A stretch of DNA of 64,000 nucleotides from sequence record NC_024794.1; one strand, 5' to 3'. The first letter of the stretch is position 1, and every line of letters starts with the position of its first letter. Below the pieces are notes generated by a model that was not told where the DNA came from, did no database searches, and was given only the letters and a program-made list of their open reading frames with translations. This document shows positions 190 to 15,603 of the stretch, in pieces. This DNA comes from Escherichia phage vB_EcoM_PhAPEC2. A program made the position numbers and the translations under genes.

Positions 190-674
190 ATATACGCTTT
201 CCAAGTTCCTGTTTTAAATGTTGAGATTACGCGTTTCGCGCGATTAGGTGTCTGACGATACCATTTAGATTTGGCTAGATTTACTGCCGCTTCGTCCCAA
301 CGTTTCTGTTGAAGCATACGAAGAGAATTAGTAAAACCAGCGACGCCTGCTACACCCATTTGGAAGACCATATTGATCAATGCACATCGACGAACCGCAT
401 CTAAAGAATCATATACCGGTTTAAGTTTAGCATTACCTAAGATTCCGCGAACGGCTTTATCAACGTCTTCATTAAATAGCTTTTCAGCCTCATCAAGGGT
501 AATTGTACCGTTGCATTTACGACCGATCATTCTGTCAAGTTCAGCTTTAGCTACGGCTAAAGACGGGTTCTTTGTTACTAAATGGCCTATGCCAATCGTC
601 CAAAAGCCTTCAGTGTCTTTGTATAAAGTCAGTCTAAGACCTTCGTCGTTACGAAGCATTTCAAATATATTCAT
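186..674 (-). CDS. e: Endolysin (T4 lysozyme)
   Basis: [32 protein letters not shown]... is near-identical to T4 lysozyme; GGAGG Shine-Dalgarno before the ATG at 674 (the ORF track extends to a GTG at 686). Confidence 0.95.
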
Positions 675-708
675 AATACCTCCCACGTTTATAGGAGGTA
701 TTTATTAC

Positions 709-1167
709 TTATAGGAGGGTAGTGAGCACCTTATATAATGATTTGCCCATTACATATTCCCATTGAGAAGGTTTAATTAAAGCGAATGCATCAAATTCAG
801 GAATCTGACGTCCATCTGGGAATGTATGATAGGAATTACAAATACTGTTTCTGAATTGCTCGTGCTCTACAGGGATGGTATATAGGAACAGATGAATATT
901 CTTATTGTCTGAGTAATGATGTTCGCCTAGGTCTTTCAGGAAGGCAGGGTCATATTGTGTAAACCCAGTTTCTTCTTCGCATTCACGAATAGCGGCTTCG
1001 ATAGGAGATTCGCCAGGTTCGACACGGCCTTTAGGAATATCCCACCGATGAGCTAATGCACCTTTAGGACGAGAACCAGTTACACGGCCCATGAATAACT
1101 CTTTATCTTTTGTCATGAAGATAATACCGGCTGATAGTTCTTTCACTTTATTTTTCTTACTCATCAT
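709..1167 (-). CDS. nudE: Nudix hydrolase
   Basis: Nudix box GRVEPGESPIEAAIRECEEETGF; adjacent to e as T4 e.1/nudE. Confidence 0.8.
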   Translation of the reverse strand: MMSKKNKVKELSAGIIFMTKDKELFMGRVTGSRPKGALAHRWDIPKGRVEPGESPIEAAIRECEEETGFTQYDPAFLKDLGEHHYSDNKNIHLFLYTIPVEHEQFRNSICNSYHTFPDGRQIPEFDAFALIKPSQWEYVMGKSLYKVLTTLL

Positions 1168-1408
1168 CTCGGTCCCATGATTTGGCCATTAATTCGGACA
1201 TAAATTCTTCAATGCGCGTTTCTTTAGACGGACTTTCACTATTAGAGACCGCAAGTTTGTAATCTGCAATAGGACGGAACAAATCAAGGTCCATATTAAG
1301 ATCGTCTTTGATTTTTTCTTCTGACACATCTTTATCGTATGTGTACAGATAACTATCACATGATTCTGATTTAATGTAAATTGCTATACTCATCTCAAAT
1401 TCCTGCAT
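1157..1408 (-). CDS. Hypothetical early protein (83 aa)
   Basis: ORF in the minus-strand early operon; start overlaps the upstream stop. Confidence 0.45.
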   Translation of the reverse strand: MQEFEMSIAIYIKSESCDSYLYTYDKDVSEEKIKDDLNMDLDLFRPIADYKLAVSNSESPSKETRIEEFMSELMAKSWDRDDE

Positions 1409-1881
1409 TCGGTAATAAAACGTTCAACTTCATTATTCTTGGCTTTTATCTTGTCTTTATGTTCTTGTAAACTACTTTTAATAAGATTAATAATGATGGC
1501 AGCGGTACCACCGCCAATGATGCCACCAACAACACTTATGATACTAGATGCTAATAAGATAGCAATAATATCAACAAAACCGAAAGAACTCACCTTAGTA
1601 CTAAAAAACCACACTGACGGTACAAATATAATCCATCCTGTTATCCATTGGCACTTATTGAAAAACTTTTCAAGCTCAGCTTGAGTTGTTCGTATTACTT
1701 CATCGATAGGTTGATATCCGTTAATGTATCTGTTCACAATAATACCTGCTGGCTGGTCGATTTTAAATTCTTGGCAAATATGTTTCACTAAGTAGGATGG
1801 ACATCCTGTCCAATCTACTGAATAGTATGAAATACCTTCATTGCCATCGTCTATATTAGACCAATATGTTTTGTTAATCAT
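1390..1881 (-). CDS. Membrane protein with C-terminal ExFIxECR tail
   Basis: Gly/Ile-rich predicted TM segment; C-terminus ERFITECRNLR; TAATG overlap with the upstream gene. Confidence 0.5.
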   Translation of the reverse strand: MINKTYWSNIDDGNEGISYYSVDWTGCPSYLVKHICQEFKIDQPAGIIVNRYINGYQPIDEVIRTTQAELEKFFNKCQWITGWIIFVPSVWFFSTKVSSFGFVDIIAILLASSIISVVGGIIGGGTAAIIINLIKSSLQEHKDKIKAKNNEVERFITECRNLR

Positions 1882-2567
1882 TACCAGCCTTCCATAGGGA
1901 ATTCCAGATAAACTTGAGCATTGACACGAATTTCATTGGTAATCTTTTTAACTCGATCTGTATTACGAGATACACGTCCGAACCAACGCCATCCGTTACT
2001 AATTGCACGAGAACCAGTGTGCCATGTTTGCCAATCAAACTGAAGAAGAGTACGGTCTGGAGCTTCCCATTTCTCTAGTTCGCCTTTTTCGATTTTTTCG
2101 AGGACTTCTTTGTGCCACTGACGATAGATAAGTTCGCCATCAGGAATCTGACTGAACTCTGCAGTTCCTGTTGCAAAATGAGTAGGACACACACCAGCGT
2201 TAACAAGACCAAGAATATGTTCAGAATGGTAACGAGGGTTGTCATAGTCAGGTTGTCCTGCAGTAATAAAGTGTTGACCAACTGGAATATCAGGGCGTGG
2301 TACGTCATCATGGTGATAGCCTGGGATTGCAGGATACCAACCAGGCATCAGCATGTGGACTCGTGAATCAAATACAACCTGGTCGGTGTTCCAATCATCA
2401 GGCAAGTTCATAATGAAAGAGCGAGTAATAGGACCGCCGTTATTATAAGCAAATTCTAAACTACAGTTGAAGAACATAGGCTCGTTCTTGATTTTATCAT
2501 TAGAAATGCTACCGGCAAAACCACCTACTGCACGAGCTTGACTATTAAACACTTTAGAACTATTCAT
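1881..2567 (-). CDS. Hypothetical protein (228 aa)
   Basis: Long ORF with His/Asp-rich segments; no family recognised. Confidence 0.5.
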   Translation of the reverse strand: MNSSKVFNSQARAVGGFAGSISNDKIKNEPMFFNCSLEFAYNNGGPITRSFIMNLPDDWNTDQVVFDSRVHMLMPGWYPAIPGYHHDDVPRPDIPVGQHFITAGQPDYDNPRYHSEHILGLVNAGVCPTHFATGTAEFSQIPDGELIYRQWHKEVLEKIEKGELEKWEAPDRTLLQFDWQTWHTGSRAISNGWRWFGRVSRNTDRVKKITNEIRVNAQVYLEFPMEGW

Positions 2568-2568
2568 A

Positions 2569-2874
2569 TTATTTTCCTCGACATTCTTTAATGAAATTTT
2601 CTAGATTGGTAGATTCAATAGCTTTTTTACGAGCTTCTGCGTGTTCTTCTTCAGACAATTTACGTTTATAATTGACCCAGACATTATGGTCTAAACCAGT
2701 TGTGGCATATAATATCAAAGCTCCGACGAATAATAAAAACGGTGATAAAAATATACAACCAGGAACACCATCCATACTGTAAGCCTTTTGTAATACGGCA
2801 ACAGAAAGAGCTGCGTAAAAAAGCGATGCAAATATTGTAAAAAGACCGATTCGGTTGGTTTCGCCTAATTTCAT
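2569..2874 (-). CDS. Small membrane protein with C-terminal ENFIKECR tail
   Basis: Two hydrophobic segments; C-terminus ENFIKECRGK; early promoter cassette upstream at 2903-2931. Confidence 0.55.
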   Translation of the reverse strand: MKLGETNRIGLFTIFASLFYAALSVAVLQKAYSMDGVPGCIFLSPFLLFVGALILYATTGLDHNVWVNYKRKLSEEEHAEARKKAIESTNLENFIKECRGK

Positions 2875-2902
2875 AATATTCTCCTCATGTTTTAATAGGA
2901 CT

Positions 2903-2931
2903 ACTATAACATAGTCCTATAATTGTGTAAA
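2903..2931 (-). promoter_or_regulatory. Early promoter cassette (PeSL-like) with palindrome
   Basis: Minus strand: TTTACA, 17 bp, TATAGT; the -10 is embedded in palindrome ATAGGACTA-N7-TAGTCCTAT. Confidence 0.6.
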
Positions 2932-2944
2932 CAGTTTTGTGAAG

Positions 2945-3901
2945 TTATTTGAAAGGTTTTACCATATGGAAATTTTGTTTGAAACGTTTTACGTAATCGT
3001 CGTGTCCTAAGCTTTGGTACATACTTACAACTTTGCTGTAGTTTTCCCAGGCGTATTCACGGAACCAACCGGAGGTGATGCTTGTGCAGACTTTTTCTAA
3101 TGCCATCATGAAACTGGCTTCAGGGTTAATTTTAAAGTCATTAGGAATCTGAGAACGTTCTAACGCTAGTACACATGATTCTTCGTATACACCGGCCAAT
3201 TTGACCATTTCTGGTAACGATTCGAACTTCTCGCGTGAGGTCATGACTTCAGAACCGTCTTTCATGTAAAACGTATAAGCCGGACGGTCTGTTAGTGCAA
3301 TGGCTTCATGAATAGTATCATGGTCATATGTATAGATGTCATCTTTAAAGAACGCACTTTTAGAAGTGTCAAGAACTGGGTGAGCATAGTTCAAAGTTTC
3401 TTTCTGGCGTTTCAGCATAATTTCAGTAAGTTCATCGTTCAGTGTAACACCTTTACCACGAAGATACTGGATATGGTTCATAGTCTTTAAAAAGAATGGA
3501 TTATTTTTCTTGAAACGATGAGACATTTTAATTGCAAGACATATCTCAGGAGTTGCCCAGTAAAACCCGGTCAAACGATCTTTAGTCAAATTTTTCTTGG
3601 CGTATTTTAAAAGGTCATAAGAAGACGTGAAATCTTCAGGAGTGAGTTCGCCGATTAATTCACGGACATTAGTGATTGCCGGAACAATATACGCTTCAAA
3701 ATGAGTTTCGCGTCCGTTATGGAAGCATTTGAAAACTTGGACATCAGGGTTATCTTGGTGAACATATACACCCATCATTTGATTTTTGAATGCATTCCAA
3801 GAACATTGGTCTGCAATAAAGTCCCAGTCACTATTTTTGATAGCGTTAGAATCAATAAGACCATGATAGTGAAGTGCACGAGAACCAATAACTAACATCA
3901 T
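2945..3901 (-). CDS. Putative Pol-beta-superfamily nucleotidyltransferase (318 aa)
   Basis: N-terminal hGS...SDxDh signature (VIGSRALHYHGLIDSNAIKNSDWDFIA) typical of minimal nucleotidyltransferases; no T4 counterpart recalled. Confidence 0.5.
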   Translation of the reverse strand: MMLVIGSRALHYHGLIDSNAIKNSDWDFIADQCSWNAFKNQMMGVYVHQDNPDVQVFKCFHNGRETHFEAYIVPAITNVRELIGELTPEDFTSSYDLLKYAKKNLTKDRLTGFYWATPEICLAIKMSHRFKKNNPFFLKTMNHIQYLRGKGVTLNDELTEIMLKRQKETLNYAHPVLDTSKSAFFKDDIYTYDHDTIHEAIALTDRPAYTFYMKDGSEVMTSREKFESLPEMVKLAGVYEESCVLALERSQIPNDFKINPEASFMMALEKVCTSITSGWFREYAWENYSKVVSMYQSLGHDDYVKRFKQNFHMVKPFK

Positions 3902-3929
3902 AATATTTTCCTCGGATTAATTCATTAAC

Positions 3930-4169
3930 TTAAATTTCACGACATGCGATATTATATTCATCCCAGAGGTCATCATGTGAAGCCTCTACCAATGGAACGA
4001 TTGTACCGTTTATGTCTTCATTATAAGGGCAAATTGTACAGTGCGCGTCTTCGAATCGGATGCCTTTGTGTTCAGATTTTTTATAACGCATATCGAATAT
4101 CTTTGCAAACTTTTCACGAGTAATGGTTTTAGCAACCACTTTGGTTCCAATACTTTCGTAATAAATCAT
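3930..4169 (-). CDS. Hypothetical early protein (79 aa)
   Basis: ORF directly downstream of the early promoter cassette at 4198-4226. Confidence 0.45.
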   Translation of the reverse strand: MIYYESIGTKVVAKTITREKFAKIFDMRYKKSEHKGIRFEDAHCTICPYNEDINGTIVPLVEASHDDLWDEYNIACREI

Positions 4170-4197
4170 TGTGGACTCCGTTTAATTTGATAGGACT

Positions 4198-4226
4198 ACT
4201 ATAACATAGCCCTATCTTGTTGTAAA
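4198..4226 (-). promoter_or_regulatory. Early promoter cassette (PeSL-like)
   Basis: Same architecture and near-identical sequence to 2903-2931 and 11747-11775. Confidence 0.6.
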
Positions 4227-4231
4227 CTGTT

Positions 4232-4429
4232 TTAGCAAGAATAACTAGATGATACCCAGCCTTGAACAGTGATACTATTGTGGGATAATGAGATCGCGTC
4301 CTGGAGATTCAGACCTGCGTTATCTTCAATCCATAATGTAACTTCTTCGCGTTCTTCTGTTGCAATTTGGAACAGGTTTTCCAGGGCAGCTACTGCCGTA
4401 CGTACAGCACAATCTAATTCACGAGACAT
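4232..4429 (-). CDS. Paralog family member, C-terminus GWVSSSYSC
   Basis: Third of three tandem paralogs ending GxWVxSSxxC-stop. Confidence 0.5.
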   Translation of the reverse strand: MSRELDCAVRTAVAALENLFQIATEEREEVTLWIEDNAGLNLQDAISLSHNSITVQGWVSSSYSC

Positions 4430-4438
4430 ATGATTTCC

Positions 4439-4711
4439 TTAACAAGTGTGAGAAGATGCAACCCAACCACCAGTTTCGAGGCTCAGGTTGTAGTCGTATT
4501 GGTAAACGTCGGCCCATTCAGCATAGCCGTTTTTTGTACAACGTTCAAGATCGGCTTTAAGATGTCCTGGTGAATGATAGGTTCCACCCATACCATAAGC
4601 TGGGTACAAGTCGAATGTTGTGTTTTGTTTATCAGCAATTTCTTTGGCAGCCTCAATAGCTGCATAGATTTTTGCTACGGCTTCAGCCAGTTCGGTTTGT
4701 TCTTTAGACAT
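4439..4711 (-). CDS. Paralog family member, C-terminus GGWVASSHTC
   Basis: Shares GGTYHSPG and C-terminal motifs with 4721-5026; the conserved codons differ at synonymous sites. Confidence 0.55.
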   Translation of the reverse strand: MSKEQTELAEAVAKIYAAIEAAKEIADKQNTTFDLYPAYGMGGTYHSPGHLKADLERCTKNGYAEWADVYQYDYNLSLETGGWVASSHTC

Positions 4712-4720
4712 AATGATTCC

Positions 4721-5026
4721 TTAGCACAACGCAGAAGACGAAACCCAAGCACCTTCAGTAATAACGTAACCATTACCTTCACGCTTAACATCGCCACCAT
4801 TATTTTCAATTTCATCTTTCATCCACTGGGATACGATTTCACCCTTAGGATAATAAGTACGACCGCTACCATAATCACCTACAGAAAATGATACGGCATA
4901 TTGGTCTGCGATCTTTGTTGCTTCTTCTTCGATACGTTCAGCTTGATTCAGAAGTTTATAAATTGCATCTGAAGCGGATTTGGCATCATTAAACTCTGGT
5001 ACTTTAATTTCAATAATCTTACTCAT
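4721..5026 (-). CDS. Paralog family member, C-terminus GAWVSSSALC
   Basis: Shares GRTYYPKG and C-terminal motifs; start overlaps the upstream stop (ATGA). Confidence 0.55.
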   Translation of the reverse strand: MSKIIEIKVPEFNDAKSASDAIYKLLNQAERIEEEATKIADQYAVSFSVGDYGSGRTYYPKGEIVSQWMKDEIENNGGDVKREGNGYVITEGAWVSSSALC

Positions 5027-5382
5027 TTTCTACATTCCTTAATAAAGTTTTCAATTGTTTCATTTTCACGTCTAGCTAGGAGTTCATTATAACTAATCAT
5101 TTGAGAAGCGTAAACCTTTTTATTTTTCTTGTTATGGTTTATAAAATCGTAGTAAAAATAGACTACAGTACAAAATGATGCGATGGATGCAAAGGCTTGG
5201 GTGTATCTTAGGTCCTGCCATTGGTCTGTGAATCCACCGGTATTCCCTATAAATCCTAACACAACTCCGTCAATAAGAAATCCAACTAATCCAAAGGCAA
5301 ATCCCATGCCAATACTCATAATAAAAATTAGAATGTTCTCACCAAGAGACGGCCATACGGTTAAGAGTTGAGGCTTTTGCAT
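5023..5382 (-). CDS. Small membrane protein with C-terminal ENFIKECRK tail
   Basis: N-terminal TM helices, charged C-terminal half, terminal ENFIKECRK. Confidence 0.55.
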   Translation of the reverse strand: MQKPQLLTVWPSLGENILIFIMSIGMGFAFGLVGFLIDGVVLGFIGNTGGFTDQWQDLRYTQAFASIASFCTVVYFYYDFINHNKKNKKVYASQMISYNELLARRENETIENFIKECRK

Positions 5383-5756
5383 CTTATTTCCTTAACGAAT
5401 TCCATAGCTTCTTCATATTCATATTTTTTAACAGCTTCATCATACTGAGCTTGGGCTTTTGCGCACTGAACTTTCCACTCGCGAACTCGAGCTCTGTGAT
5501 GACGGCCTTGGTGCCAATATCCTGCCCAATTAATAGGCATTAATAAAAACGGTACAATAAGTGGTGCGACGAACATTAATGAAAACGCTGCATCAGACGA
5601 TATAACTTTATTGGAATCTAAAATAGCTCCTATAATCATAAAGATTAAAAATGCTAAAGCTAAAATAGGGCCAAATAGTACTTCGTTTGGGATTAATTTA
5701 CGTTTGTATTCGTATGCCCATGGCTTAATTGGCATGTACAGGGTTGGCTTTGACAT
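5361..5756 (-). CDS. Small membrane protein with EFVKEIRC tail
   Basis: Likely ATG at 5756 (MSKPTLYM...; the track starts at a TTG at 5786); two TM segments. Confidence 0.5.
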   Translation of the reverse strand: MSKPTLYMPIKPWAYEYKRKLIPNEVLFGPILALAFLIFMIIGAILDSNKVISSDAAFSLMFVAPLIVPFLLMPINWAGYWHQGRHHRARVREWKVQCAKAQAQYDEAVKKYEYEEAMEFVKEIRCKSLNS

Positions 5757-6327
5757 ATTCTCTACATTCCATAATAAATTGCTCAAGGATTAAATTGTTA
5801 GTGAAATTAGGACTAACAACCATAGTTTCATAAAGCGCATCAATAGCACTTAAAGCATCAACTCTTTTAAGCAAAGGCTTGCCTTCATACATAGTTTCAG
5901 AATCGACGATTAACGTAAAGTAATATTTTTTATTATCGACTAGAACTTCTGTGTCGATATAAAACATATTAGACCTCAGAAGCTTATCTCTAAAACCATA
6001 ATAATCTTCTGAACGTTCGCTGATATATTCCAATTCAGTGTTTAAACAACAAACAGACCACGTAGGAGCAACGAAATCAGTGAATCTAATATCATGGTCT
6101 GCAACTAGTTTAGCAATAGCTCCGATATCATGAATCATAATACCTGGGGCTAATAAAGATTTTCTGCTATGGCTAGCAGTTTTCTCAGTGGTCTCATAAG
6201 AAGCTGACCAGTACCATTTACGTCCGGTTGCAACATATCGTAATGAATCAACTAAAGACGTAGGTGGATTTACCTTATCTCGGAACTCTTCGAACATTGA
6301 GTCAATATCATTATTTTGGTTTCGCAT
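5725..6327 (-). CDS. Hypothetical protein with C-terminal EQFIMECR motif
   Basis: Likely start MRNQNN at 6327 with an AAGGAG Shine-Dalgarno; the track start at 6372 lies inside the terminator hairpin. Confidence 0.5.
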   Translation of the reverse strand: MRNQNNDIDSMFEEFRDKVNPPTSLVDSLRYVATGRKWYWSASYETTEKTASHSRKSLLAPGIMIHDIGAIAKLVADHDIRFTDFVAPTWSVCCLNTELEYISERSEDYYGFRDKLLRSNMFYIDTEVLVDNKKYYFTLIVDSETMYEGKPLLKRVDALSAIDALYETMVVSPNFTNNLILEQFIMECREYVKANPVHAN

Positions 6328-6344
6328 GTTAACTCCTTTATTAT

Positions 6345-6368
6345 CCAAAAGGAGGACCGGAGTCCTCC
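6345..6368 (-). terminator. Rho-independent terminator
   Basis: GGAGGAC-UCCG-GUCCUCC hairpin followed by UUUUGG on the minus strand. Confidence 0.6.
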
Positions 6369-6376
6369 GCATTATT

Positions 6377-6985
6377 TTATTTCAAAGAGTTAATATATTC
6401 TTGTACATCAGCAGAAGTGGTTTCGACACCGGCTGGAGTGCCATTGAACGTTTCAACACGAGTCAGAGTGTCTTCGATATCAACCTTAGTCAGTGCAGCG
6501 ATTTCAATTACATCATCGGCTGTAGAGATACCAAGGGCATTGGCTGCTCGAGTTTCACGAATGTATTCGAGTTTAATTGCCAGGTTCTGACGAGCATCGT
6601 CAAGTTCAACCACCTTACGAGCAATTTCAATTCGCATAGCGGCATACCCGTCGGCTTTTGTATTAAGTTGTTCGGCAGTTCGACGATACAGAAGACCAAG
6701 TTTAGCATGCATAGTAACATCTTGTCCTTCAGCCAGGAGCTTGCGAATTTCACGTTCCTTAGAAGCGGCTTGCTTGTTCTTTTCATTAACAAGTTCGCGA
6801 ATACGTTTTTCTTCATTAATAGATTTAACAGAAGCCGTTTTTAGTTCTTTGATTTGGGTAATCAACTTATCTGCAGCTGCGTTATACTGTTCTTCGACAG
6901 TCAGATTTTTAGCCATAGCAGTACCCAGTTTAGTGCGGATGAATTCAACAAGTTTCTTCAGTGTGTTCATATTATTACCTTTCAA
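6377..6985 (-). CDS. Coiled-coil protein, possibly PspA/IM30-like
   Basis: About 200 aa, predicted all-helical with heptad-like charged repeats and a PspA-like N-terminal pattern; weak call. Confidence 0.3.
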
Positions 6986-7011
6986 TTGGTGGTTTATTAT
7001 CCAATGAGAGC

Positions 7012-7040
7012 ATTATACTCTGCTCTCAAGAGTTTGTAAA
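7012..7040 (-). promoter_or_regulatory. Early promoter
   Basis: Minus strand: TTTACA, 17 bp, TATAAT, with inverted repeat GAGAGC/GCTCTC around the -10; upstream of 6377-6985. Confidence 0.55.
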
Positions 7041-7268
7041 TTATTTTTTAATCAAATTGACATAAAACTTGGCGTCTTCCGGGTGCATGCCTTCACAGTA
7101 TTCTTCAACCATGAACTTCTTAACAGCTTCATAAGGACCACTCAGATTAAGCTCAGTTGTCCAGAACTTGGAATCTTGGGCTGAATCGATACGAACTTCA
7201 GGGTGACGGTTGCGAATAACTTCTTCGGTATATTCATAATCAACGACATCAATACTAACTTTAGCCAT
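7041..7268 (-). CDS. Hypothetical early protein (75 aa)
   Basis: Preceded by early promoter cassette 7299-7327 and Shine-Dalgarno AGAGGAG. Confidence 0.5.
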   Translation of the reverse strand: MAKVSIDVVDYEYTEEVIRNRHPEVRIDSAQDSKFWTTELNLSGPYEAVKKFMVEEYCEGMHPEDAKFYVNLIKK

Positions 7269-7298
7269 TTTGTTTCTCCTCTGTAGTTGATAAGTCTA

Positions 7299-7327
7299 TA
7301 GTATCACCATCCTTGGTGCTTGTACAT
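7299..7327 (-). promoter_or_regulatory. Early promoter cassette (PeSL-like)
   Basis: Minus strand: TGTACA, 17 bp, TGaTACTAT; leader duplicated at 44504-44535. Confidence 0.55.
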
Positions 7328-7334
7328 CATTATT

Positions 7335-7640
7335 TTATTTTTTCCAACTTAACAACTTGTAGTGTCCTTCATTCGTACGAGGTTTATCCCAAGAAACACT
7401 AATATATGATTCGCTGTCAATAGAAGTCGCCGGGTTTTTCTCTACCGTAAGACCTTCACTTTCCAACCATTCAATAGTATTTGCACATAAATCAGAAGAA
7501 CACCTAATCGGGAACCGGCAAGATTTTTCACCTTTAGCTGCAGTGTTATACATCTTTTCTAAAATACGCTTTTGCACGTTTTTAAAAATAGTTTCAGCAG
7601 ATTCTTCAGATTTTTTATTCAGTTCAGTATAAAGACTCAT
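7335..7640 (-). CDS. Hypothetical early protein (about 101 aa)
   Basis: Start chosen at MSLYTELN; the first ATG (7667) lies inside the 3' arm of the hairpin at 7660-7687. Confidence 0.4.
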   Translation of the reverse strand: MSLYTELNKKSEESAETIFKNVQKRILEKMYNTAAKGEKSCRFPIRCSSDLCANTIEWLESEGLTVEKNPATSIDSESYISVSWDKPRTNEGHYKLLSWKK

Positions 7641-7659
7641 AACATTCTTCTCATTAATA

Positions 7660-7687
7660 GGGCTCATAATATCTTAATCATGAGCCC
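7660..7687 (-). terminator. Hairpin between early genes that sequesters a start codon
   Basis: 8-bp stem GGGCTCAT/ATGAGCCC with 12-nt loop; the first ATG of the downstream ORF lies in the 3' arm. Confidence 0.4.
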
Positions 7688-7697
7688 ATGTACACAT

Positions 7698-7973
7698 TTA
7701 TTTCATATTATTGAAATAATCTTCCGCATCAAAATCGTTATCATGGTAAACTTTGGTAGACGATTTGGCGTAGCCTTCGGCCGAGAACATATTAATCACA
7801 ACTTTAATTGTATACCACTGTCCGTCTTCATTACCCATTACTGCGTAAGTTTCAAACATCGGATGGTCAGGTCCAATAACTTTAATATCATTCACCGTAC
7901 GTCCGAAATCTTCTGGAACACATTTCATAAAGAAGTTGAACAGTTCACCGTAATTATCCATTTCATTCTCCAA
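7698..7973 (-). CDS. Hypothetical early protein (91 aa)
   Basis: Downstream of early promoter cassette 8004-8032. Confidence 0.5.
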   Translation of the reverse strand: MENEMDNYGELFNFFMKCVPEDFGRTVNDIKVIGPDHPMFETYAVMGNEDGQWYTIKVVINMFSAEGYAKSSTKVYHDNDFDAEDYFNNMK

Positions 7974-8003
7974 GTTTTTTCTGTATCGGTAGTTGATAGT
8001 TGT

Positions 8004-8032
8004 ATAGTACCACGGAAGAACAGGGATGTAAA
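8004..8032 (-). promoter_or_regulatory. Early promoter cassette
   Basis: Minus strand: TTTACA, 17 bp, TGgTACTAT. Confidence 0.55.
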
Positions 8033-8101
8033 CAGTTTTGTGAAAAAATTTTTAAAAAGTTCTGGGGAATTCTAGGGCAGGGAGAGGAAAGGCCTAGATA
8101 C

Positions 8102-8129
8102 CAAAAAGCCCTATCATTTAGATAGGGCT
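8102..8129 (-). terminator. Rho-independent terminator after ip-like gene
   Basis: AGCCCUAUC-loop-GAUAGGGCU followed by a U-run on the minus strand. Confidence 0.6.
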
Positions 8130-8135
8130 TTAAAA

Positions 8136-8699
8136 TTATTTACCTAGTTTAGTTATTATAGCTTCGGCAGCAGCTTTTAGCTTAGATGCAGTGTTAATAC
8201 GATTTTTAATTTCAGTATACGCATCGCCAAGAACATCAAGGCTATCAGAATAAACACTTACACTATTGCGTTCGCTATTTGAAATAGAACCTTTAGTTTT
8301 ACGATCAAAATCAGTGTACACGTCTTGAAGATCACGGGCTGCCTTCTTTGCATCATCCAATGCGTCAAGAGCTTTATTCAAAGCATTGACATATTTTTTA
8401 GTGTCAAACATATTCTTAGAAATTTTAACAGGTGCACGTTCAGGAGTAGCTAAGGCGGATTTAGGAACCTGCGTGCCAGATGCCAGTTTCTTAGAAATTT
8501 TGAAAAACGCTTTATTGAAACTATTTTCTTGACTCATCGTAAAAGAACTAGTATCGATGTTATACATTTCAATAGCTTTAGCTTTCCACTTAAGAAAATC
8601 GCCACGGTCTTTTGGATCCAAGTGGAAGAATACTTTAGTAAGATCTGCTTCAGATGGTAATTTTGCTGCTTCGGTTAAAAATTCGGCATAGGTTTTCAT
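8136..8699 (-). CDS. Internal-protein-like (capsid-targeted) protein, 187 aa
   Basis: N-terminus MKTYAEFLTE|A matches the IP capsid-targeting sequence and gp21 L-x-E cleavage pattern; followed by a rho-independent terminator. Confidence 0.6.
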   Translation of the reverse strand: MKTYAEFLTEAAKLPSEADLTKVFFHLDPKDRGDFLKWKAKAIEMYNIDTSSFTMSQENSFNKAFFKISKKLASGTQVPKSALATPERAPVKISKNMFDTKKYVNALNKALDALDDAKKAARDLQDVYTDFDRKTKGSISNSERNSVSVYSDSLDVLGDAYTEIKNRINTASKLKAAAEAIITKLGK

Positions 8700-8789
8700 T
8701 TAAAATCCTTGAAATAATTTATCGGTTTGTTATTAATTATTTATTACTTTGGTATTATCAGTAACAGCATTCTCCGAGTGAGTCAAACT

Positions 8790-8816
8790 AAAAAGCCCCA
8801 ACCTTTCGGAAGGGGC
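8790..8816 (-). terminator. Rho-independent terminator after ip-like gene
   Basis: GCCCC...GGGGC hairpin followed by a U-run; same element as 9332-9363. Confidence 0.6.
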
Positions 8817-8822
8817 ATTCTA

Positions 8823-9287
8823 TTATTTAATTTGTTTAGCAGACCAGATACGGTCTTTAATAAGTTTTTGGATATCTTCAACATACTCAAGGCTATGAGC
8901 GTGAGGATTATCTTTGAAGCTATGTGCTCGTGCCAGTTTCTGGCCTTCTGTTTTGATTACTAAAAGCTCTTTAAGAATTGCTTCATACTTAGAAATAATT
9001 CCTTTGGCGATATTTTTTTCTTGAGCGGCTTTAGGGTCCGCTTTTGGCACAGGTGCTTTACCTGTAGCTTTCTGGAACAATTCACCTGATGCAGCTAGGC
9101 TTTTAAAAACTCGGCTAACAGTATTAGCATTAGTAAAACCTTCGGCTTTAAAATCTCTAATAAAACGGAAACGTTCTTCATCAGAGGCGTCTTTGTAAGA
9201 ATATTTACCTGCTTGAATTGCTGCAATCGCAGCGGCTTTTACATCTGAACTAGATTGTTCAGTCAAAAATTCAGCGTATGATTTCAT
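8823..9287 (-). CDS. Internal-protein-like (capsid-targeted) protein, 154 aa
   Basis: N-terminus MKSYAEFLTE|Q; same terminator hairpin downstream as the neighbouring ip-like gene. Confidence 0.6.
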   Translation of the reverse strand: MKSYAEFLTEQSSSDVKAAAIAAIQAGKYSYKDASDEERFRFIRDFKAEGFTNANTVSRVFKSLAASGELFQKATGKAPVPKADPKAAQEKNIAKGIISKYEAILKELLVIKTEGQKLARAHSFKDNPHAHSLEYVEDIQKLIKDRIWSAKQIK

Positions 9288-9331
9288 GTTGCTTTTCCTA
9301 AGTTAATTAACTTATCTATTTATTATTATGC

Positions 9332-9363
9332 CAAAAAAAAAGCCCCAACCTTTCGGAAGGGGC
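9332..9363 (-). terminator. Rho-independent terminator closing the tRNA/small-RNA transcription unit
   Basis: Same hairpin as 8790-8816 followed by nine U. Confidence 0.65.
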
Positions 9364-9365
9364 TA

Positions 9366-9520
9366 TGCCTTGCGGCAACCTTGTCGGGGTTCCACCTGCT
9401 AAGGCAAGTGTTTGTACGAAACGCCGGGATTCGAACCCGGTTATTAAGTAGTTGACGCTACTCAATATTTTTAAAAGGCCATATCTCGACCATATCCGAA
9501 CGTTCCGTCAAAAACGCTAC
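9366..9520 (-). ncRNA. tRNA-like structured RNA (T4 rnaC/rnaD-like?)
   Basis: Canonical T-arm CCGGGTTCGAATCCCGG (plus 9424-9440) and a 7-bp acceptor-like pairing (CGGAACG/CGTTTCG), but no canonical D or anticodon arm; 310-nt ORF-free interval ending in the terminator at 9332-9363. Confidence 0.3.
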
Positions 9521-9675
9521 TCGGCTTACGGCAAAGATATTTCCTCGAATCGATAATTCGGTGCGCCGTTTCTGCTGTGATGTAAGGGGATATTAACAAA
9601 TCGTAAAGATTTATTAAGACCAGTCCTTACTCAGGGAACATCAGTCCGACGACTTACCGGTAGCGACCCGGCTTC

Positions 9676-10020
9676 TTATTTTGACATATCATCAATTTGC
9701 TCTCGACGCCGACGCCATAGATTAATCACTTCATTACCACATTCGGCGTTTGGTATATGACGGCAATAATATAATGATTCGCGTTTCTGGAACCGATGTT
9801 GCAATGGGATTTCGTTTAAAAGGTCTTTACGGTCAAAGTATTCAAAACTAGTTAACCCAGAACGATTTTTAATGAACTTCCAATGTCCAAATTCATTTTG
9901 AACATAGATGTAATCGGCATGCTGATACAACGAATTAATCAATCGGTCTGAAATAACTGTATCATGTTCGTTAAAATAAAACGTTAAATCATGAACTACT
10001 AAGTAAACATTACCTTTCAT
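9676..10020 (-). CDS. Hypothetical protein (114 aa) in the tRNA region
   Basis: ORF with a GAGGAAA Shine-Dalgarno, 20 nt downstream of the tRNA-Arg 3' end. Confidence 0.5.
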   Translation of the reverse strand: MKGNVYLVVHDLTFYFNEHDTVISDRLINSLYQHADYIYVQNEFGHWKFIKNRSGLTSFEYFDRKDLLNEIPLQHRFQKRESLYYCRHIPNAECGNEVINLWRRRREQIDDMSK

Positions 10021-10039
10021 ATTTTCCTCACTTATTAAA

Positions 10040-10115
10040 TGGTCGAGACAGTAGGGATCGAACCTACGACCTAGGACTTAGAAGGTCCTTGCTCTTCCTT
10101 CTGAGCTATGCCTCG
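10040..10115 (-). tRNA. tRNA-Arg (anticodon TCT)
   Basis: Hand-folded cloverleaf: acceptor CGAGGCA/TGTCTCG, anticodon loop CTTCTAA, T-arm GTAGGTTCGATCCCTAC, CCA encoded. Confidence 0.8.
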
Positions 10116-10119
10116 TATT

Positions 10120-10194
10120 TGGCGGACGTGCATGGATTCGAACCATGGGCCAATTGATTAACAGTCAACTGCTCTACCACTGAGCTACACATCC
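10120..10194 (-). tRNA. tRNA-Asn (anticodon GTT)
   Basis: Acceptor GGATGTG/CACGTCC, D-arm GCTCAGTGGTAGAGC, anticodon loop CTGTTAA, T-arm CATGGTTCGAATCCATG, CCA encoded. Confidence 0.75.
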
Positions 10195-10198
10195 AAAT

Positions 10199-10273
10199 TG
10201 GTGGCCCTGGCTGGTTTCGATCCAGCTACCTATCAGTTATGAGCTGACAGCTCTCCCATTGAGCTACAGGGCC
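10199..10273 (-). tRNA. tRNA with anticodon CAT (Met, or Ile if lysidine-modified)
   Basis: Perfect acceptor GGCCCTG/CAGGGCC, anticodon loop CTCATAA, CCA encoded. Confidence 0.7.
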
Positions 10274-10335
10274 TAAATAACTTTCTATTATGAAAGGCAC
10301 TTTAGAGCACCTTTGGTAATAGAGGGTATGAATTA

Positions 10336-10362
10336 ATAATAACACATAATTCTTAAAGCAAA
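10336..10362 (-). promoter_or_regulatory. Putative T4-type middle promoter for the tRNA cluster
   Basis: Minus strand reads MotA box TTGCTTTA, 12-bp spacer, TATTAT; about 60 nt upstream of the tRNA cluster. Confidence 0.4.
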
Positions 10363-10868
10363 TCAATCATTTTAACAGTCGGCAAAACGATTTCTTCTTC
10401 AATATAAGCAAATTCGACACGTTCAACTACACGCAAGAAATCATAATCATAATATTCAGAAGCATGGCCAAGAATATCAGTGAGACCTTCTGATACCAAA
10501 TATCCGTTCTCACGGAACAGGTCAAATACACGTGATTCGTCTTCTTCAGATTTATTGCCGAGGTCGACTTCAATATCAAAGACCTTTTTAATGAATTCTG
10601 GATAAAGCTGGTCTGAGAACAGTCCTTCAACCAAGTATTCATAGATTAAAAGCGAGCAATCACTGAATAGTGTATTACCACAGTAACGTTCAGCTTTAGT
10701 GCTGGAATGACGACTCTTAAATTTCTTCAAGAGATATTTAAACTGCTGGAGCTCATGCTCTTCCACACCAAATAATGTTTTGGTTTTATAGTTGTCACCA
10801 TCATTTTCGTAGGTAGTGACATCAATTACGTAGCCCTTAGGAATTGTACTGCCTAAACAAATATTCAT
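10353..10868 (-). CDS. Hypothetical early protein (171 aa)
   Basis: ORF in a coupled operon. Confidence 0.5.
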   Translation of the reverse strand: MNICLGSTIPKGYVIDVTTYENDGDNYKTKTLFGVEEHELQQFKYLLKKFKSRHSSTKAERYCGNTLFSDCSLLIYEYLVEGLFSDQLYPEFIKKVFDIEVDLGNKSEEDESRVFDLFRENGYLVSEGLTDILGHASEYYDYDFLRVVERVEFAYIEEEIVLPTVKMIDLL

Positions 10869-10872
10869 TTAC

Positions 10873-11163
10873 TCACCGTACCATATTAATGTAATTATAT
10901 TCAATGCAACGTAATTTCAAAGGATTCTTGAAAATATCATATTCAAGAGGGCCTTTTTCTGTTTCAATAAAGAAATCAAAGTTAACTGTGTTAAATTTAT
11001 CATCTTCACAGAGTAATTTAACTTGCGAAGATGAACGGTCGATATAAACCTTTTCAACCTCAAAGTTAGTCAGAATACCATAGTCATTAACTAGTGCTTT
11101 AGCTGCACGTTGATCGCTTTCATATCCATTCTCGACAGATTTTACTTTAGCATAAAGAATCAT
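10873..11163 (-). CDS. Hypothetical early protein (96 aa)
   Basis: ORF; start overlaps the upstream stop (ATGA). Confidence 0.45.
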   Translation of the reverse strand: MILYAKVKSVENGYESDQRAAKALVNDYGILTNFEVEKVYIDRSSSQVKLLCEDDKFNTVNFDFFIETEKGPLEYDIFKNPLKLRCIEYNYINMVR

Positions 11164-11540
11164 GAGTGTTCCACCACTTCAAAGGTATGAGCATCAACAA
11201 TATGATACCAGTCAAAATTTTCTTCTGCGTTTTTATAAATTTCGCGAAGAGCCTCAACAGTTTTTCCTGTAGCAACAAGGTCGTCAATACCACCAAGAGG
11301 ATAACAGTCATAACCAGCAAACAGAAGGAAATTAATAGTTTCTGTAGGTTCTGGATGCAGAACTCCGTTATCGTCTACCACTTCAAAGAAAGTGTAAGAA
11401 GGAGTACAAGTTTTAATCCAGGCCCATGCTTGAGCCGCTGAATCAAATGGTCTGCGTATCAAACGACAATCAGGGTCTTTAGAAGGATTTGCTTCAAAAT
11501 CCGCATATACATGATATTTCATTTTACTCACCTTTTGCAA
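11160..11540 (-). CDS. Hypothetical early protein (about 120 aa)
   Basis: ORF; two alternative ATG starts (MQKVSK / MKYHVY). Confidence 0.45.
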   Translation of the reverse strand: MQKVSKMKYHVYADFEANPSKDPDCRLIRRPFDSAAQAWAWIKTCTPSYTFFEVVDDNGVLHPEPTETINFLLFAGYDCYPLGGIDDLVATGKTVEALREIYKNAEENFDWYHIVDAHTFEVVEHS

Positions 11541-11730
11541 TTTTATCCATAACGATAGCGATTAAGCCGATTAGAAATGCTACTACCAATGAGATAGAGT
11601 TTTCAGTTGTTGTCAGTAGTCCACAAATGAATCCTACAAACATCGAAAAACTAAAAGCCATTGAAGCAATTACTACAGCAACATTACGAATCAGTTCAGC
11701 GCGTTTCATTTTATTTCTCCATTTACTCAT
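11524..11730 (-). CDS. Small membrane protein (62-68 aa)
   Basis: Two hydrophobic segments; the likely start is the second ATG (MKRAEL, GGAG Shine-Dalgarno); early promoter cassette 11747-11775 upstream. Confidence 0.45.
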   Translation of the reverse strand: MSKWRNKMKRAELIRNVAVVIASMAFSFSMFVGFICGLLTTTENSISLVVAFLIGLIAIVMDKIAKGE

Positions 11731-11746
11731 TTGTTTTGATAGGACT

Positions 11747-11775
11747 ACTATAACATAGTCCTATCGTGTTGTAAA
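11747..11775 (-). promoter_or_regulatory. Early promoter cassette (PeSL-like)
   Basis: Third copy of the TAGGACTA palindrome cassette: TTTACA, 17 bp, TATAGT. Confidence 0.6.
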
Positions 11776-11779
11776 CTAC

Positions 11780-12067
11780 TTACAGAAGAGTTTTTGCAAT
11801 AATTTTAAGCTGAGCTACAGAAATATGCTTAGCTTTAAACAGTGCGGTCTCTTCAGCCGGAGAGATAACAATAGTAGCGCCGTCTTTCTTAGCAGACCAT
11901 CCGTCCCCTAAGTAAACAGTACCTTTTACTTCTTCACCGTCAACCAGACTAATCATTGGTTTACCCTCACGTCCTTTATTTGTTTTAATAACTTCAGAAG
12001 TAAGGGATGCTTCGGTCAGAGTAGAAACGTTAGCAACAGGTGATATAAATTCTTTATAGGTTTTCAT
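11780..12067 (-). CDS. Internal protein I-like (capsid-targeted), 95 aa
   Basis: N-terminus MKTYKEFIS... with LTE at residues 17-19; same size and position as T4 ipI next to 57B; own early promoter at 12102-12130. Confidence 0.6.
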   Translation of the reverse strand: MKTYKEFISPVANVSTLTEASLTSEVIKTNKGREGKPMISLVDGEEVKGTVYLGDGWSAKKDGATIVISPAEETALFKAKHISVAQLKIIAKTLL

Positions 12068-12101
12068 TTTATTTCCTTGAGGCTGTTTATTTGATAGGAT
12101 G

Positions 12102-12130
12102 ATAGTATCACACCATCATCCTTATGTAAA
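12102..12130 (-). promoter_or_regulatory. Early promoter cassette upstream of ipI-like gene
   Basis: Minus strand: TTTACA, 17 bp, TGaTACTAT, with inverted repeat AGGATGAT/ATCATCCT. Confidence 0.55.
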
Positions 12131-12144
12131 CTGTTTTGTGAAAA

Positions 12145-12830
<686 letters not shown>

Positions 12831-12834
12831 TTTA

Positions 12835-13569
12835 TTACCTTAAGATTTTTTCAATTTTAGAATAAAGCTCTTCTAAAGAGCCGTCGTTTGTAATAACTAA
12901 ATCGCCTTCTTCAATAGGCAACCCAGCTTCTGTAATATGTTTATCAGTGGATTCCGTACCAGAGCGAACCACATGAATAACTGTAGCACCCATCGCTCTA
13001 GCGGTTTCCATTTCATGGACTTGGCGTGTATCGGTCACAACGTAGTAATCGAAATCACTTCCAATATAATCCATATAGTTTAATGCAAAAAGCTTAACCC
13101 AATACATACGGTCAAATAAATTAACGACAACATCCGTACCGAGGGCTTGCATAAGACGGCGGATTGACCATGTGTCGTTGATATTATTTATAGCTTCACG
13201 CAGGGCTTCGTACGGTTTAATATCTAGATATGAATATCCACCTTCTAGTGATGATAATACGTTAACACCGTTAATTGGCAGGTATTGTCGTTGTAAATAA
13301 ATTAGCGTTTCTTCCATTAATTCAATAACATCCAATTTATTGAGATTTAATGGTGTTTCACGGTCGTATCCAATGCCTTCAAAGTATTCATATTTCAACT
13401 CGGTGAATACATCCGGGTTTTCGGCATGTTTACGCTCCCAAGCTATTGCTAGAGCGTCTTTAATTGGATATGCTAATTGATATTTTATGGATTTAAAGTT
13501 TGAATTGATGTAATCAGCAGTAGTGTCTTTACCACTACGTTTGATGCCGCTTAAAAAGATTAGCTCCAT
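12835..13569 (-). CDS. 1: dNMP kinase
   Basis: MELIFLSGIKRSGKDTTADY... P-loop; near-identical to T4 gp1. Confidence 0.95.
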   Translation of the reverse strand: MELIFLSGIKRSGKDTTADYINSNFKSIKYQLAYPIKDALAIAWERKHAENPDVFTELKYEYFEGIGYDRETPLNLNKLDVIELMEETLIYLQRQYLPINGVNVLSSLEGGYSYLDIKPYEALREAINNINDTWSIRRLMQALGTDVVVNLFDRMYWVKLFALNYMDYIGSDFDYYVVTDTRQVHEMETARAMGATVIHVVRSGTESTDKHITEAGLPIEEGDLVITNDGSLEELYSKIEKILR

Positions 13570-13623
13570 AGGTTTTTCCTCATATAATTTATGAACGATT
13601 ATAACATATGGAGCTAGAAGCGA

Positions 13624-14214
13624 TTAGCGCAAGGAAGGGTGTCTAGAAATGGATTTAGATTCGACTGCTTGACGTGGTTGTTGAGATACAATGACTTCGC
13701 CATCTTTTTCTATCGTCATATACGCGTAGTGAATAGTTGCTACGCACGTAACGGCAGGGTCAGAGTCTTCAGTGTAACTAAATTCAATTTCACTCAAATC
13801 AGAAATCCATGGTTTATAGAAATTTGCCGTCAAAACTACTTCTGTCTTATTGTTGTTTAAAATGTGCAAAGTAACAAACTCAGGACCATCGGAGTGGGCC
13901 GTATTATGTCCGGTTATATAGTTATTAGTGCTGAGCATCCATTTATACATGTTCATCCAGGACGTCATGTCTTCATCAACTATAAATCGTACAACAAAAG
14001 GGTCATATTCAAATGTGGTGCCTGCACGCATTGCACGTCCTAACCCCATTGTGCCTGTCACAGTTTCAACAACAGGAATTCTCACACCTGGCAATGGTGC
14101 CGTTTGGGCATTGAGCACAAAACCTGAAGTTCGTGTACTATCCGGGATATCCACAACAAAGTTTGTTATATTTGTTTGGTTAAAAATCTGTCTCGTTGGA
14201 CGAGTCATAAGCAC
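13624..14214 (-). CDS. 3: Tail completion / sheath stabiliser gp3
   Basis: Position between genes 1 and 2 and size; GAGGTG Shine-Dalgarno; exact start (14214 or 14208) uncertain. Confidence 0.75.
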   Translation of the reverse strand: MLMTRPTRQIFNQTNITNFVVDIPDSTRTSGFVLNAQTAPLPGVRIPVVETVTGTMGLGRAMRAGTTFEYDPFVVRFIVDEDMTSWMNMYKWMLSTNNYITGHNTAHSDGPEFVTLHILNNNKTEVVLTANFYKPWISDLSEIEFSYTEDSDPAVTCVATIHYAYMTIEKDGEVIVSQQPRQAVESKSISRHPSLR

Positions 14215-14318
14215 CTCAAAAACGCTTTAATAAAAATGCAGTATAATGGTTTTAGGTCTCTTCCATTAATCCGGTTCAACAGAATATCAGAATATCAGAC
14301 GAACGGAAGAGAATAGAA

Positions 14319-15140
14319 TTAAGATTTCCAAACAGTATTCGCAGAGAAACGTTTTCCTTTTGACATAAATTGCTGAGTAGGTAACATGATTATGTTAGCC
14401 CAGTCTTTAGGAGCTATTTCTGTTATTGTTCCTCTAATGTGGCCTGGCAGGTATGCTTTAATCATTTTGTCAGCACCTTGAAATCCTTTCACCTTGCTCC
14501 AGTCTATCTTCAACTTTGTGTTATTAGTAATAGTAGTTGTGCTAGCATATTGCTTCAGCAATTCTTCAAGAAACTGTTGACGTGCTTTAGGTGGGATATA
14601 GTGCAAGTTTAGCCCATACATCAAATTATGTTTACCTAATCCTAAATAAATAATCAAAGGATATCGGTCCCAATATGGCAGAGTATCTTTATGTTTAGCA
14701 TCATACACGTAAGTATAAATTTTGCCTGGCGTAGGCTTAACTACTTTATGACCTTTTACACTTTTCTTAATTGTTTCAACAAACCACTTAGATGATTTGT
14801 TGTTTACTGCTGCGCCTTCATTTCTAATCTTTTCTCGTATTGAACTGCGAAACGAGTTTATCATCAGAAGTTGACGTTCTTGCTTATTGAGTTTATTTTT
14901 AGGTTTAGATTCAAGCGTTTCAATTTTCTGTGCAGTCTTAATAGATGATGCATATCTAGACATTGCAGATGTAAACGATGAGTATTTTATTCCTTTTGAT
15001 TCTGCAAATGCTTTTGCAGTGATTCCTTTCTCTTTAGCTTTCTTGTATTCTAATCCTATCTCAATCCATTTTCTTTCATTTATAGACTGAGCAATCTTAG
15101 GGGCTTGTACGCCTTCAGATATAATTTGGAATATGCTCAT
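14319..15140 (-). CDS. 2: DNA end-protector gp2
   Basis: 273 aa, basic; T4 order 3-2-4. Confidence 0.8.
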
Positions 15141-15142
15141 AA

Positions 15143-15592: not shown

Positions 15593-15603
15593 GTTGTCCT
15601 CCT

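Follow-up and report, generated by a model that had tools for sequence, protein, structure and literature searches.

Early promoter cassettes with overlapping hairpins as probable points of small-gene exchange in an RB69-like phage

Introduction

How small accessory genes can come and go in a phage genome without breaking the expression of their neighbours is the question raised by a series of repeated minus-strand promoter elements in Escherichia phage vB_EcoM_PhAPEC2 (NC_024794.1), of which a stretch of 64,000 nucleotides (the window) was analysed. An earlier note on this DNA had described nine copies of an extended early promoter embedded in an inverted repeat and had likened them to the promoter-early stem-loop (PeSL) cassettes of T4-type phages. 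The elements are here interpreted as early promoters with overlapping hairpins, between which small genes are probably exchanged in the manner of the PeSL model. The window belongs to Mosigvirus, the RB69-like coliphage group, with 96-98% identity to RB69-group phages. Positions 2800-12200 match 907 phage records, headed by Escherichia phage ST2 (98.1% identity over 100%) and RB69 (96.1% over 92%), both Mosigvirus; the Mosigvirus genomes number about 200 (208 records at 95-99% identity).

Promoters and Overlapping Hairpins

All nine sites of the earlier note are real, each consisting of a -35 box TTTACA (once TGTACA), exactly 17 bp and a TAnnnT box. Seven of them match the strict pattern TTTACA-N14-TGnTA, for which shuffles gave an expectation of 0.35, the two outside it being those at 7298 (TGTACA) and 7012 (no TG). 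A relaxed scan of both strands returned the nine sites together with two weak ones at 5086-5114 and 47372-47400, and no comparable promoter site on the plus strand of the window. Eight sites had been placed correctly, the ninth lying at 7298-7326 rather than 7299-7327 (a 1-nt shift), and the extended -10 box likewise applies to eight noted sites and not to 7012-7040, where GAG precedes TATAAT in place of TGn. Moreover, the list was incomplete, as a strong tenth site at 7666-7694 had been overlooked. The window contains ten strong sites of the form TTTACA or TGTACA, N17, TAnnnT, all on the minus strand and eight of them with TGn. An alignment, which had been proposed as a check, brings the ten cassettes into line without gaps, and the near-identical copies are confirmed by a 26-nt palindrome, ATAGGACTACTATAACATAGTCCTAT, that occurs three times with at most one mismatch (2895, 4190 and 11739; none expected).

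Each cassette fills a short intergenic gap in the order stop codon, A-rich stretch, GTTTACA, 17 bp, (TGn)TAnnnT, TATCAA start region, Shine-Dalgarno (SD) sequence and ATG. The stop codon of the upstream gene lies 0-16 nt before the -35 box, as in the PeSL layout, the segment 5' of this box is A-rich, and SD and ATG follow 35-55 nt after the -10 box. The features of the T4-type early promoter class (Hinton, 2010; PMC2988021) are present, namely a GTTTAC -35 box, TGn, a TAnnnT -10 box, an UP-like A-rich region and an orientation towards an early gene. In addition, all twelve sites of the window (nine noted, one missed and two weak) have counterparts among the 58 early promoters that Nolan et al. 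(2006; PMC1524935) predicted and listed for RB69. Their convention, a start 7 nt after the -10 box, was adopted here and puts the predicted minus-strand starts of the ten cassettes at about 2896, 4191, 7005, 7291, 7659, 7997, 11740, 12095, 44519 and 59859. Most leaders carry GGAG in the SD sequence, the RegB cleavage motif according to T4 and RB69 records, which is in keeping with early genes. The sites are taken as sigma-70-dependent early promoters of an RB69-like T4-type phage, their activity and early timing being predicted from sequence.

For each cassette, the spacer, the -10 box and the next 14 nt were folded and compared with 1000 shuffles in which TG and the -10 box were held fixed. 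Six of the ten cassettes, identified by the start of their -35 box (2931, 4226, 7040, 7694, 11775 and 12130), carry a strong hairpin of -12.7 to -17.8 kcal/mol (z -4.2 to -7.2). Its 5' arm lies in the spacer, its loop comprises TGn and most of the -10 box, and its 3' arm follows the -10 box and ends at about -3 to +7. Of the remaining four cassettes, one has a stem-loop set apart from the promoter, 73 nt upstream, and three have none. The embedding in an inverted repeat ascribed to all nine sites thus stands, by z against shuffles, for five of them (2931, 4226, 7040, 11775 and 12130) and falls for four (7326, 8032, 44554 and 59894). A single-register covariation count was dropped, as the stems use at least three registers, and constrained-shuffle energies and register-free stem scoring were used instead.

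The RB69 promoters were tested genome-wide by folding -30 to +8 of the 57 minus-strand entries in the list of Nolan et al. A fold of -8 kcal/mol or lower is reached by 23 of the 57, whereas the 38-nt segments immediately upstream and downstream reach it in 6 and 0 cases, respectively; the mean z of the promoter folds is -2.5. These stems comprise about ten unrelated families in several registers; the family of ATAGGACTAT is represented by 9-10 copies, which precede sp, tRNA.4, ipI, ndd.1 and several novel open reading frames (ORFs). The syntenic promoters of T4 trna.4, ipI, e.7, ipII and ipIII have -10-spanning stems at the same place with different sequences. Among 106 non-redundant promoters from 120 stretches of an IMG/VR sample, a stem (score at least 7) is present in 22.6%, compared with 5.0% in shuffles, 17.9% upstream and 0.9% downstream. 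The GenBank record of SA79RD labels equivalent hairpins as rho-independent terminators (WebGeSTer; Table 1), with only one overlapping early promoter annotated, and its ORF133c-like cassette at about 3590-3635 has a 3-nt duplication in the 3' arm (TATAGTAGTAGTCC).

The imperfections of the stems bear on the strand that is folded. Stems were chosen by Watson-Crick pairs only, which is strand-neutral, and the internal non-Watson-Crick positions were counted against a composition-matched null. On the sense strand these are G·T in 13 cases, A·C in 2 and other mismatches in 3, compared with chance stems of equal composition, in which G·T accounts for 12.5% of mismatches and for 44% of G·T plus A·C. 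The excess of G·T amounts to p ~8e-9 as a share of mismatches and to ~9e-4 as a share of G·T plus A·C. Since G·T on the sense strand is A·C on the other, the bias points to a sense-strand fold and suggests that it is, most simply, one of RNA; it argues against a palindrome bound by protein as a duplex.

Breakpoints and Chimeric Cassettes

Positions 1-16,500 of the window were compared by local BLAST with the same locus in RB69, ST2, SA79RD, phiC120, CCU7, SF and MM02, and the alignments to these seven relatives break in 12 clusters (Table 1). Six of the clusters lie inside or at the edge of cassettes, which make up 3.8% of the region (p ~2e-6 by length). As viable indels are to be expected between genes, a count by junctions is the fairer test, and here the 8 gene junctions out of 32 that bear a cassette account for 7 of the 12 clusters (p = 0.014). 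The association of the repeats with gene-content breakpoints, which had been named beforehand as a test, is borne out by these junctions and by chimeras at the cassettes.

Such chimeric cassettes are stronger evidence than the co-location of breakpoints. In RB69, frd.3 and ORF146c are separated by ORF145c, and every one of the three has a cassette of its own. The single cassette of the window follows the ORF145c cassette as far as GAGGAG and frd.3 sequence from AAACAAAATG onwards, so that cassette 4 joins the RB69 ORF145c promoter to the leader and gene of frd.3, with the crossover in the SD-ATG leader. Likewise, an additional ORF of 201 bp, with a cassette on either side, separates the ORF133c- and ORF134c-like genes in SA79RD and MM02, and the single cassette of the window corresponds to the left one through the -35 box and to the right one from the spacer on. 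In addition, RB69ORF156c is absent from the window, with the crossover in 12045-12099, and SF carries different internal protein (IP) genes between 11776 and 12045. The leader of cassette 9, from the -10 box to the ATG, is identical to the RB69 ORF145c leader about 37 kb away. The crossovers appear to use any conserved patch at hand, which fits homology-driven exchange and not a site in the stem. The two extra ORFs of SA79RD share the junction ...AAATAAG-TGTACA at their ends, which hints at a relationship between the inserted modules.

In phiC120 and CCU7, a deletion of 250 bp in e.3 has its left edge exactly at the weak promoter-like site within this gene, and the sequence upstream is exchanged as far as the -35 box of the site. 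Furthermore, two identical 27-nt terminators, GCCCCTTCCGAAAGGTTGGGGCTTTTT, bracket the ORF at 8823-9287; exactly the segment that they enclose is absent from RB69, and SA79RD, SF and MM02 break at 8787. Judging by these junctions, repeated terminators therefore mediate indels like the promoter cassettes do.

A search of other genomes, again as proposed earlier, located the cassette in front of other genes at further places in RB69 and in phages of other genera. A 56-nt cassette query gave matches at 1300 places in 344 phage records, as many as 9 of them in a single Mosigvirus genome, and the records include Acinetobacter, Aeromonas and Dhakavirus phages; in Acj61 and KARL-1, GTTTACA-N5-ATAGGAC-N12-GTCCTAT precedes unrelated small ORFs. 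Horizontal transfer was not adopted as an explanation of the likeness in Acinetobacter phages, since the identity (87-91% over 43-47 nt) is for the most part explained by the shared promoter consensus and by pairing.

Features and Neighbouring Genes

According to the RB69 annotation, positions 1-13,600 comprise e, nudE, e.2-e.8, the tRNA genes, ipI, 57B and gene 1, all on the minus strand, and the remaining window is occupied by structural genes onward to alt. The proteins encoded by e.6, e.8, tRNA.4 and ipI share 88, 89, 84 and 86% identity with T4 and are clear orthologues; frd.3 belongs to Pfam Phage_FRD3, and the RB69 record gives alt.-3 (DUF5498) as a T4 orthologue. No match in the T4 segment tested was found for the ORF133c-, ORF135c- and ORF146c-like genes and the 89-aa ORF of cassette 9, and the RB69 annotators recorded no T4 similarity for ORF133c, ORF135c and ORF146c. 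The statement that each cassette precedes a small ORF lacking a T4 counterpart is wrong for six of the ten (e.6, frd.3, e.8, tRNA.4, ipI and alt.-3), and the promoters of e.8, tRNA.4 and ipI occupy syntenic positions in T4. The description of the genes as horizontally shuffled cargo agrees with the breakpoints and chimeras at the cassettes and is overstated if extended to all of them, six of the ten being conserved T4 genes.

In the RB69ORF146c-like gene, the first in-frame ATG (7667) lies inside the gene's own -10 box, upstream of the predicted start site. The PHROG match does not start until residue 10, so that translation probably begins at ATG 7640, which yields 101 aa, and the RB69 annotation of ORF146c (110 aa) is likely too long. 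The 89-aa ORF (phrog_6003) is situated antisense between the major capsid gene 23 and the vertex gene 24 and is followed by a hairpin at 44198-44215. This locus is polymorphic, with a homing endonuclease in some Mosigvirus genomes, and the matches in Tequatrovirus records are confined to the gene 23 and gene 24 flanks. Three tRNAs (Arg-TCT, Asn-GTT and Met-CAT) are located at 10040-10273, compared with two in RB69; the tRNA-Asn insertion is common to the window and ST2, and breakpoints occur within the array. An Rfam search of 8000-10400 returned the three tRNAs only. The segment 9337-9681 shares 93% identity with the T4 rnaC/rnaD region (stable RNA species 1 and 2), including a tRNA-like T-arm, and gave no Rfam match at the gathering threshold.

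Table 1. Cassettes, related elements and breakpoint clusters; positions refer to the window except for SA79RD.
Feature	Position	Strand	Promoter, gene or location	Hairpin
Cassette 1	2872-2931	-	-35 box 2926-2931; -10 box TATAGT 2903-2908; predicted +1 ~2896; SD GGAG; ATG 2874 of RB69ORF133c-like gene	2895-2920, z -5.4
Cassette 2	4167-4226	-	promoter; ATG 4169 of RB69ORF135c-like gene	4190-4215, one G·T pair, z -6.4
Cassette 3	6968-7040	-	TTTACA-N17-TATAAT, no TGn; -35 box abuts frd.3 stop codon; ATG 6970 of e.6	TGAGAGC/GCTCTCA, 7005-7028, z -4.2
Cassette 4	7266-7326	-	TGTACA-N17-TACTAT; ATG 7268 of frd.3	no significant -10-spanning hairpin
Cassette 5 (missed earlier)	7638-7694	-	promoter 7666-7694, TGTACA-N17-TATTAT; RB69ORF146c-like gene; equivalent of Nolan Pe:72936	GGGCTCAT/ATGAGCCC, 7660-7687, z -6.1
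Cassette 6	7959-8032	-	e.8 promoter, nearly identical to T4 e.8 promoter	no overlapping hairpin
Separate hairpin	8105-8131	-	73 nt upstream of cassette 6 -35 box	11 bp, AAAGCCCTATC...GATAGGGCTTT
Cassette 7	11707-11775	-	promoter; ATG 11709 of tRNA.4	11739-11764, z -7.2
Cassette 8	12065-12130	-	promoter; ATG 12067 of ipI-like gene (Pfam IPI_T4)	AGGATGAT.../...ATCATCCT, 12096-12122, z -6.0
Cassette 9	44493-44554	-	promoter of 89-aa ORF 44226-44495	no significant hairpin
Cassette 10	59834-59894	-	alt.-3 promoter; -35 box abuts alt stop codon	marginal, p ~0.07
Weak promoter-like site	5086-5114	-	TTTACG-N17-TATAAT, inside e.3; Nolan Pe:70143, score 4.9	
Weak promoter-like site	47372-47400	-	TTTACA-N17-TATTAT, no TGn; Nolan Pe:112451	none
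Intrinsic terminator, copy 1 of 2	8790-8816	-	canonical; breakpoints 8787 and 8816	
Intrinsic terminator, copy 2	9337-9363	-	identical to copy 1; breakpoint 9337	
SA79RD labelled hairpins	3587-3623, 3860-3898, 5154-5187, 7962-7995, 12077-12110, 12433-12469			
Breakpoint	2926-2932		cassette 1, -35 box (against SA79RD and MM02)	
Breakpoint	5115 / 5366		weak site within e.3	
Breakpoint	7032-7046		cassette 3, -35 box (against SA79RD)	
Breakpoint	7262-7298		cassette 4, -10 box to ATG	
Breakpoint	7350 / 7381		3' end of ORF146c-like gene	
Breakpoint	7652		cassette 5 leader	
Breakpoint	8086-8090		between hairpin 8105-8131 and cassette 6 promoter	
Breakpoint	8787 / 8816		terminator repeat	
Breakpoint	9337		terminator repeat	
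Breakpoint	10118-10134		tRNAs	
Breakpoint	11776		cassette 7, -35 box edge (against SF)	
Breakpoint	12045-12099		cassette 8 leader and start of ipI (against RB69 and SF)	

Proposed Mechanism and Alternative Explanations

The mechanism proposed here combines an effect of the hairpin on RNA with a passive, homology-driven recombination. In about 40-60% of the promoters the spacer is complementary to the 6-10 nt following the -10 box, so that RNA reading through from the upstream gene could form a hairpin with its end at about -3 to +7. RNA begun at the cassette promoter would lack the 5' arm and could not fold it; given 3' arms that end at -3 to +7 and a start 7 nt after the -10 box, only read-through RNA is predicted to form the hairpin. 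The same ~30 bp might serve both as an end mark of the upstream message, be it an attenuator, a terminator or a 3'-end protector, and as the start signal of the next gene. Because near-identical patches of 30-45 nt within the ~60-nt cassettes recur every few hundred bases, the efficient homologous recombination of the phage could cross over between them. Small genes would be deleted, inserted or swapped between cassettes by such crossovers, and each gene would keep a working promoter. Every module would accordingly bring its own start signal and a recombination-ready linker common to the next module, which could explain for the RB69-like group how small accessory genes turn over without breaking neighbour expression and would be useful for the annotation and engineering of RB69-like therapeutic phages.

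Several observations weigh against this interpretation. The four cassettes 7326, 8032, 44554 and 59894 show no significant -10-spanning hairpin in the constrained-shuffle folding. A U tract is missing after all six -10-spanning hairpins, where the next 8 nt contain 0-4 T, and a terminator scan flagged none of them; the terminators at 8790-8816 and 9337-9363 possess U tracts of 6 and 8 T. The co-location with breakpoints is confounded, as these survive mainly in intergenic DNA, where promoters reside too, and breakpoints are also carried by the terminator and tRNA repeats, so that recombination is not peculiar to the cassettes. The G·T evidence comprises small counts, and some of the stems are related by descent. 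Furthermore, a literature search yielded no transcript or start-site data for RB69 or the phage of the window. As the U tract is absent, a role of the -10-spanning hairpins as canonical intrinsic terminators was rejected and such termination at them is unlikely; attenuation, pausing or 3'-end protection may take its place.

An explanation that dispenses with both hairpin function and mobility is that of plain, vertically inherited early promoters, whose inverted repeats are a by-product of motifs (CCTATC at the start, TAGG in the spacer) and at which breakpoints occur only since intergenic DNA tolerates them. It draws on the six of ten promoters that drive conserved T4 genes, on the synteny of the e.8, tRNA.4 and ipI promoters with T4, on the promoter-proximal CCTATC shared by the 3' arms, on the use of terminator and tRNA repeats by indels too, and on a junction-level enrichment of just p = 0.014. 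It is nevertheless considered unlikely, as hairpins are four- to five-fold more frequent than in shuffles with fixed boxes and absent just downstream of the promoter, stems that vary in sequence and register still pair, a G·T bias is not expected of a by-product, and the chimeric cassettes cross over inside shared sequence. Rather improbable, in turn, is a stronger version of the RNA function, according to which the -10-spanning hairpin is a selected stop/start switch in sense-strand RNA, with its ATAGGAC...GTCCTAT version perhaps recognised by a conserved factor. As a switch, the shared 30 bp may couple the fate of the upstream message to the firing of the next promoter. For the ATAGGAC...GTCCTAT version, which is kept from Mosigvirus to Acinetobacter T4-like phages, the candidate factor may be an RNase or a termination or recombination factor of phage or host.

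Two further explanations place the function of the repeats in DNA. The notion that the palindromes are duplex operators of a dimeric phage DNA-binding protein, acting in early shut-off or as a recombination initiator, deserves very little credence: ATAGGAC...GTCCTAT does overlap the -10 box, is present in about 9-10 copies per Mosigvirus genome and has been retained in T4-like Acinetobacter phages, which belong to another subfamily, and the cause of early promoter shut-off is not settled (PMC2988021), but at least ten unrelated stem sequences in several registers take the place of a single shared symmetric sequence. Moreover, the mismatches are G·T on the sense strand (13 versus 2 A·C) rather than symmetric, and the identity across genera comes largely from the shared promoter consensus and from pairing. 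Highly improbable, too, is an active start of recombination by cruciforms or single-strand folds that are cut by, e.g., endonuclease VII. One RB49 mini-circle had its crossover within the loop segment of the stem-loop, a targeted pathway was raised by the authors (PMC2839356), RB69 encodes endonuclease VII (gp49), and the G·T bias on the sense strand might be compatible with a single-stranded DNA fold as well. The crossovers observed here, however, lie outside the stem, in the SD-ATG leader or at the -35 box, and hairpin-free cassettes (7326 and 8032) are breakpoints as well. Short AT-rich stems with loops of 6-12 nt, for their part, extrude poorly as cruciforms.

Comparison with Known Systems

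The interpretation as promoter cassettes with exchange between them relates the window to a family of elements for which activity has been shown experimentally in RB49 and phi1, where lacZ fusions demonstrated promoter and terminator activity of PeSLs and mini-circles were found (Arbiol et al., 2010; PMC2839356). As in those phages, an intergenic AT-rich stretch holds a strong early promoter, a stem-loop, an SD sequence and an ATG. The PeSLs of RB49 and phi1 are clustered in hyperplastic regions and flank indels of close relatives, with crossovers in the zone from SD to -10 box. Unlike the window, however, RB49 features near-perfect TTGACA/TATAAT promoters and G/C-rich stems (GGGG...CCCC), whereas here the -35 box is GTTTACA, the stems are AT-rich without polyG, and the elements are known from their sequence. 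Compared with the PeSL type, the promoter, the intergenic place, SD and ATG, the breakpoints and the chimeras are all present, and the overlapping stem-loop is present in six of ten cassettes only. The same study regards elements of the T-even IP locus (Repoila et al., 1994) as analogues on T4 early promoters with weaker, AT-rich stem-loops.

PeSLs were later extended to T4/PST (Comeau et al., 2014; PMC4122927) and to KVP40/nt-1, with a consensus TTTACW-N17-TAYWAT and stems AGNA-loop-TCNT. The promoters of the window follow this consensus, and both sets are tied to swaps of ipI-type genes; the AGGA...TCCT stems at 2895-2920, 11739-11764 and 12096-12122 include the reported stem motif. The stem-loops of PST lie just upstream of the promoter according to the figure legend, whereas those of the window lie mostly over the -10 box, with the upstream layout only at 8032. 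The RB69 group was outside the set analysed in both studies, and Nolan et al. (2006) treated the RB69 sites as promoters only, with no mention of hairpins, palindromes or a link to breakpoints. The novelty is low, since the RB69 group is added to a picture known in kind since 2006 for the promoters and since 2010 and 2014 for PeSLs; modestly new are only two points, the constant position of the hairpin with respect to the transcription start and the sense-strand wobble bias. Besides, the cassettes with their genes resemble lambdoid morons, small accessory genes with their own promoter and a terminator-like hairpin, as exemplified by the 89-aa ORF at 44226-44495. Following the comparison of Arbiol et al. 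(2010), lambdoid morons depend on illegitimate recombination and have no repeated linker, whereas here homology would be provided by the repeated cassette itself.

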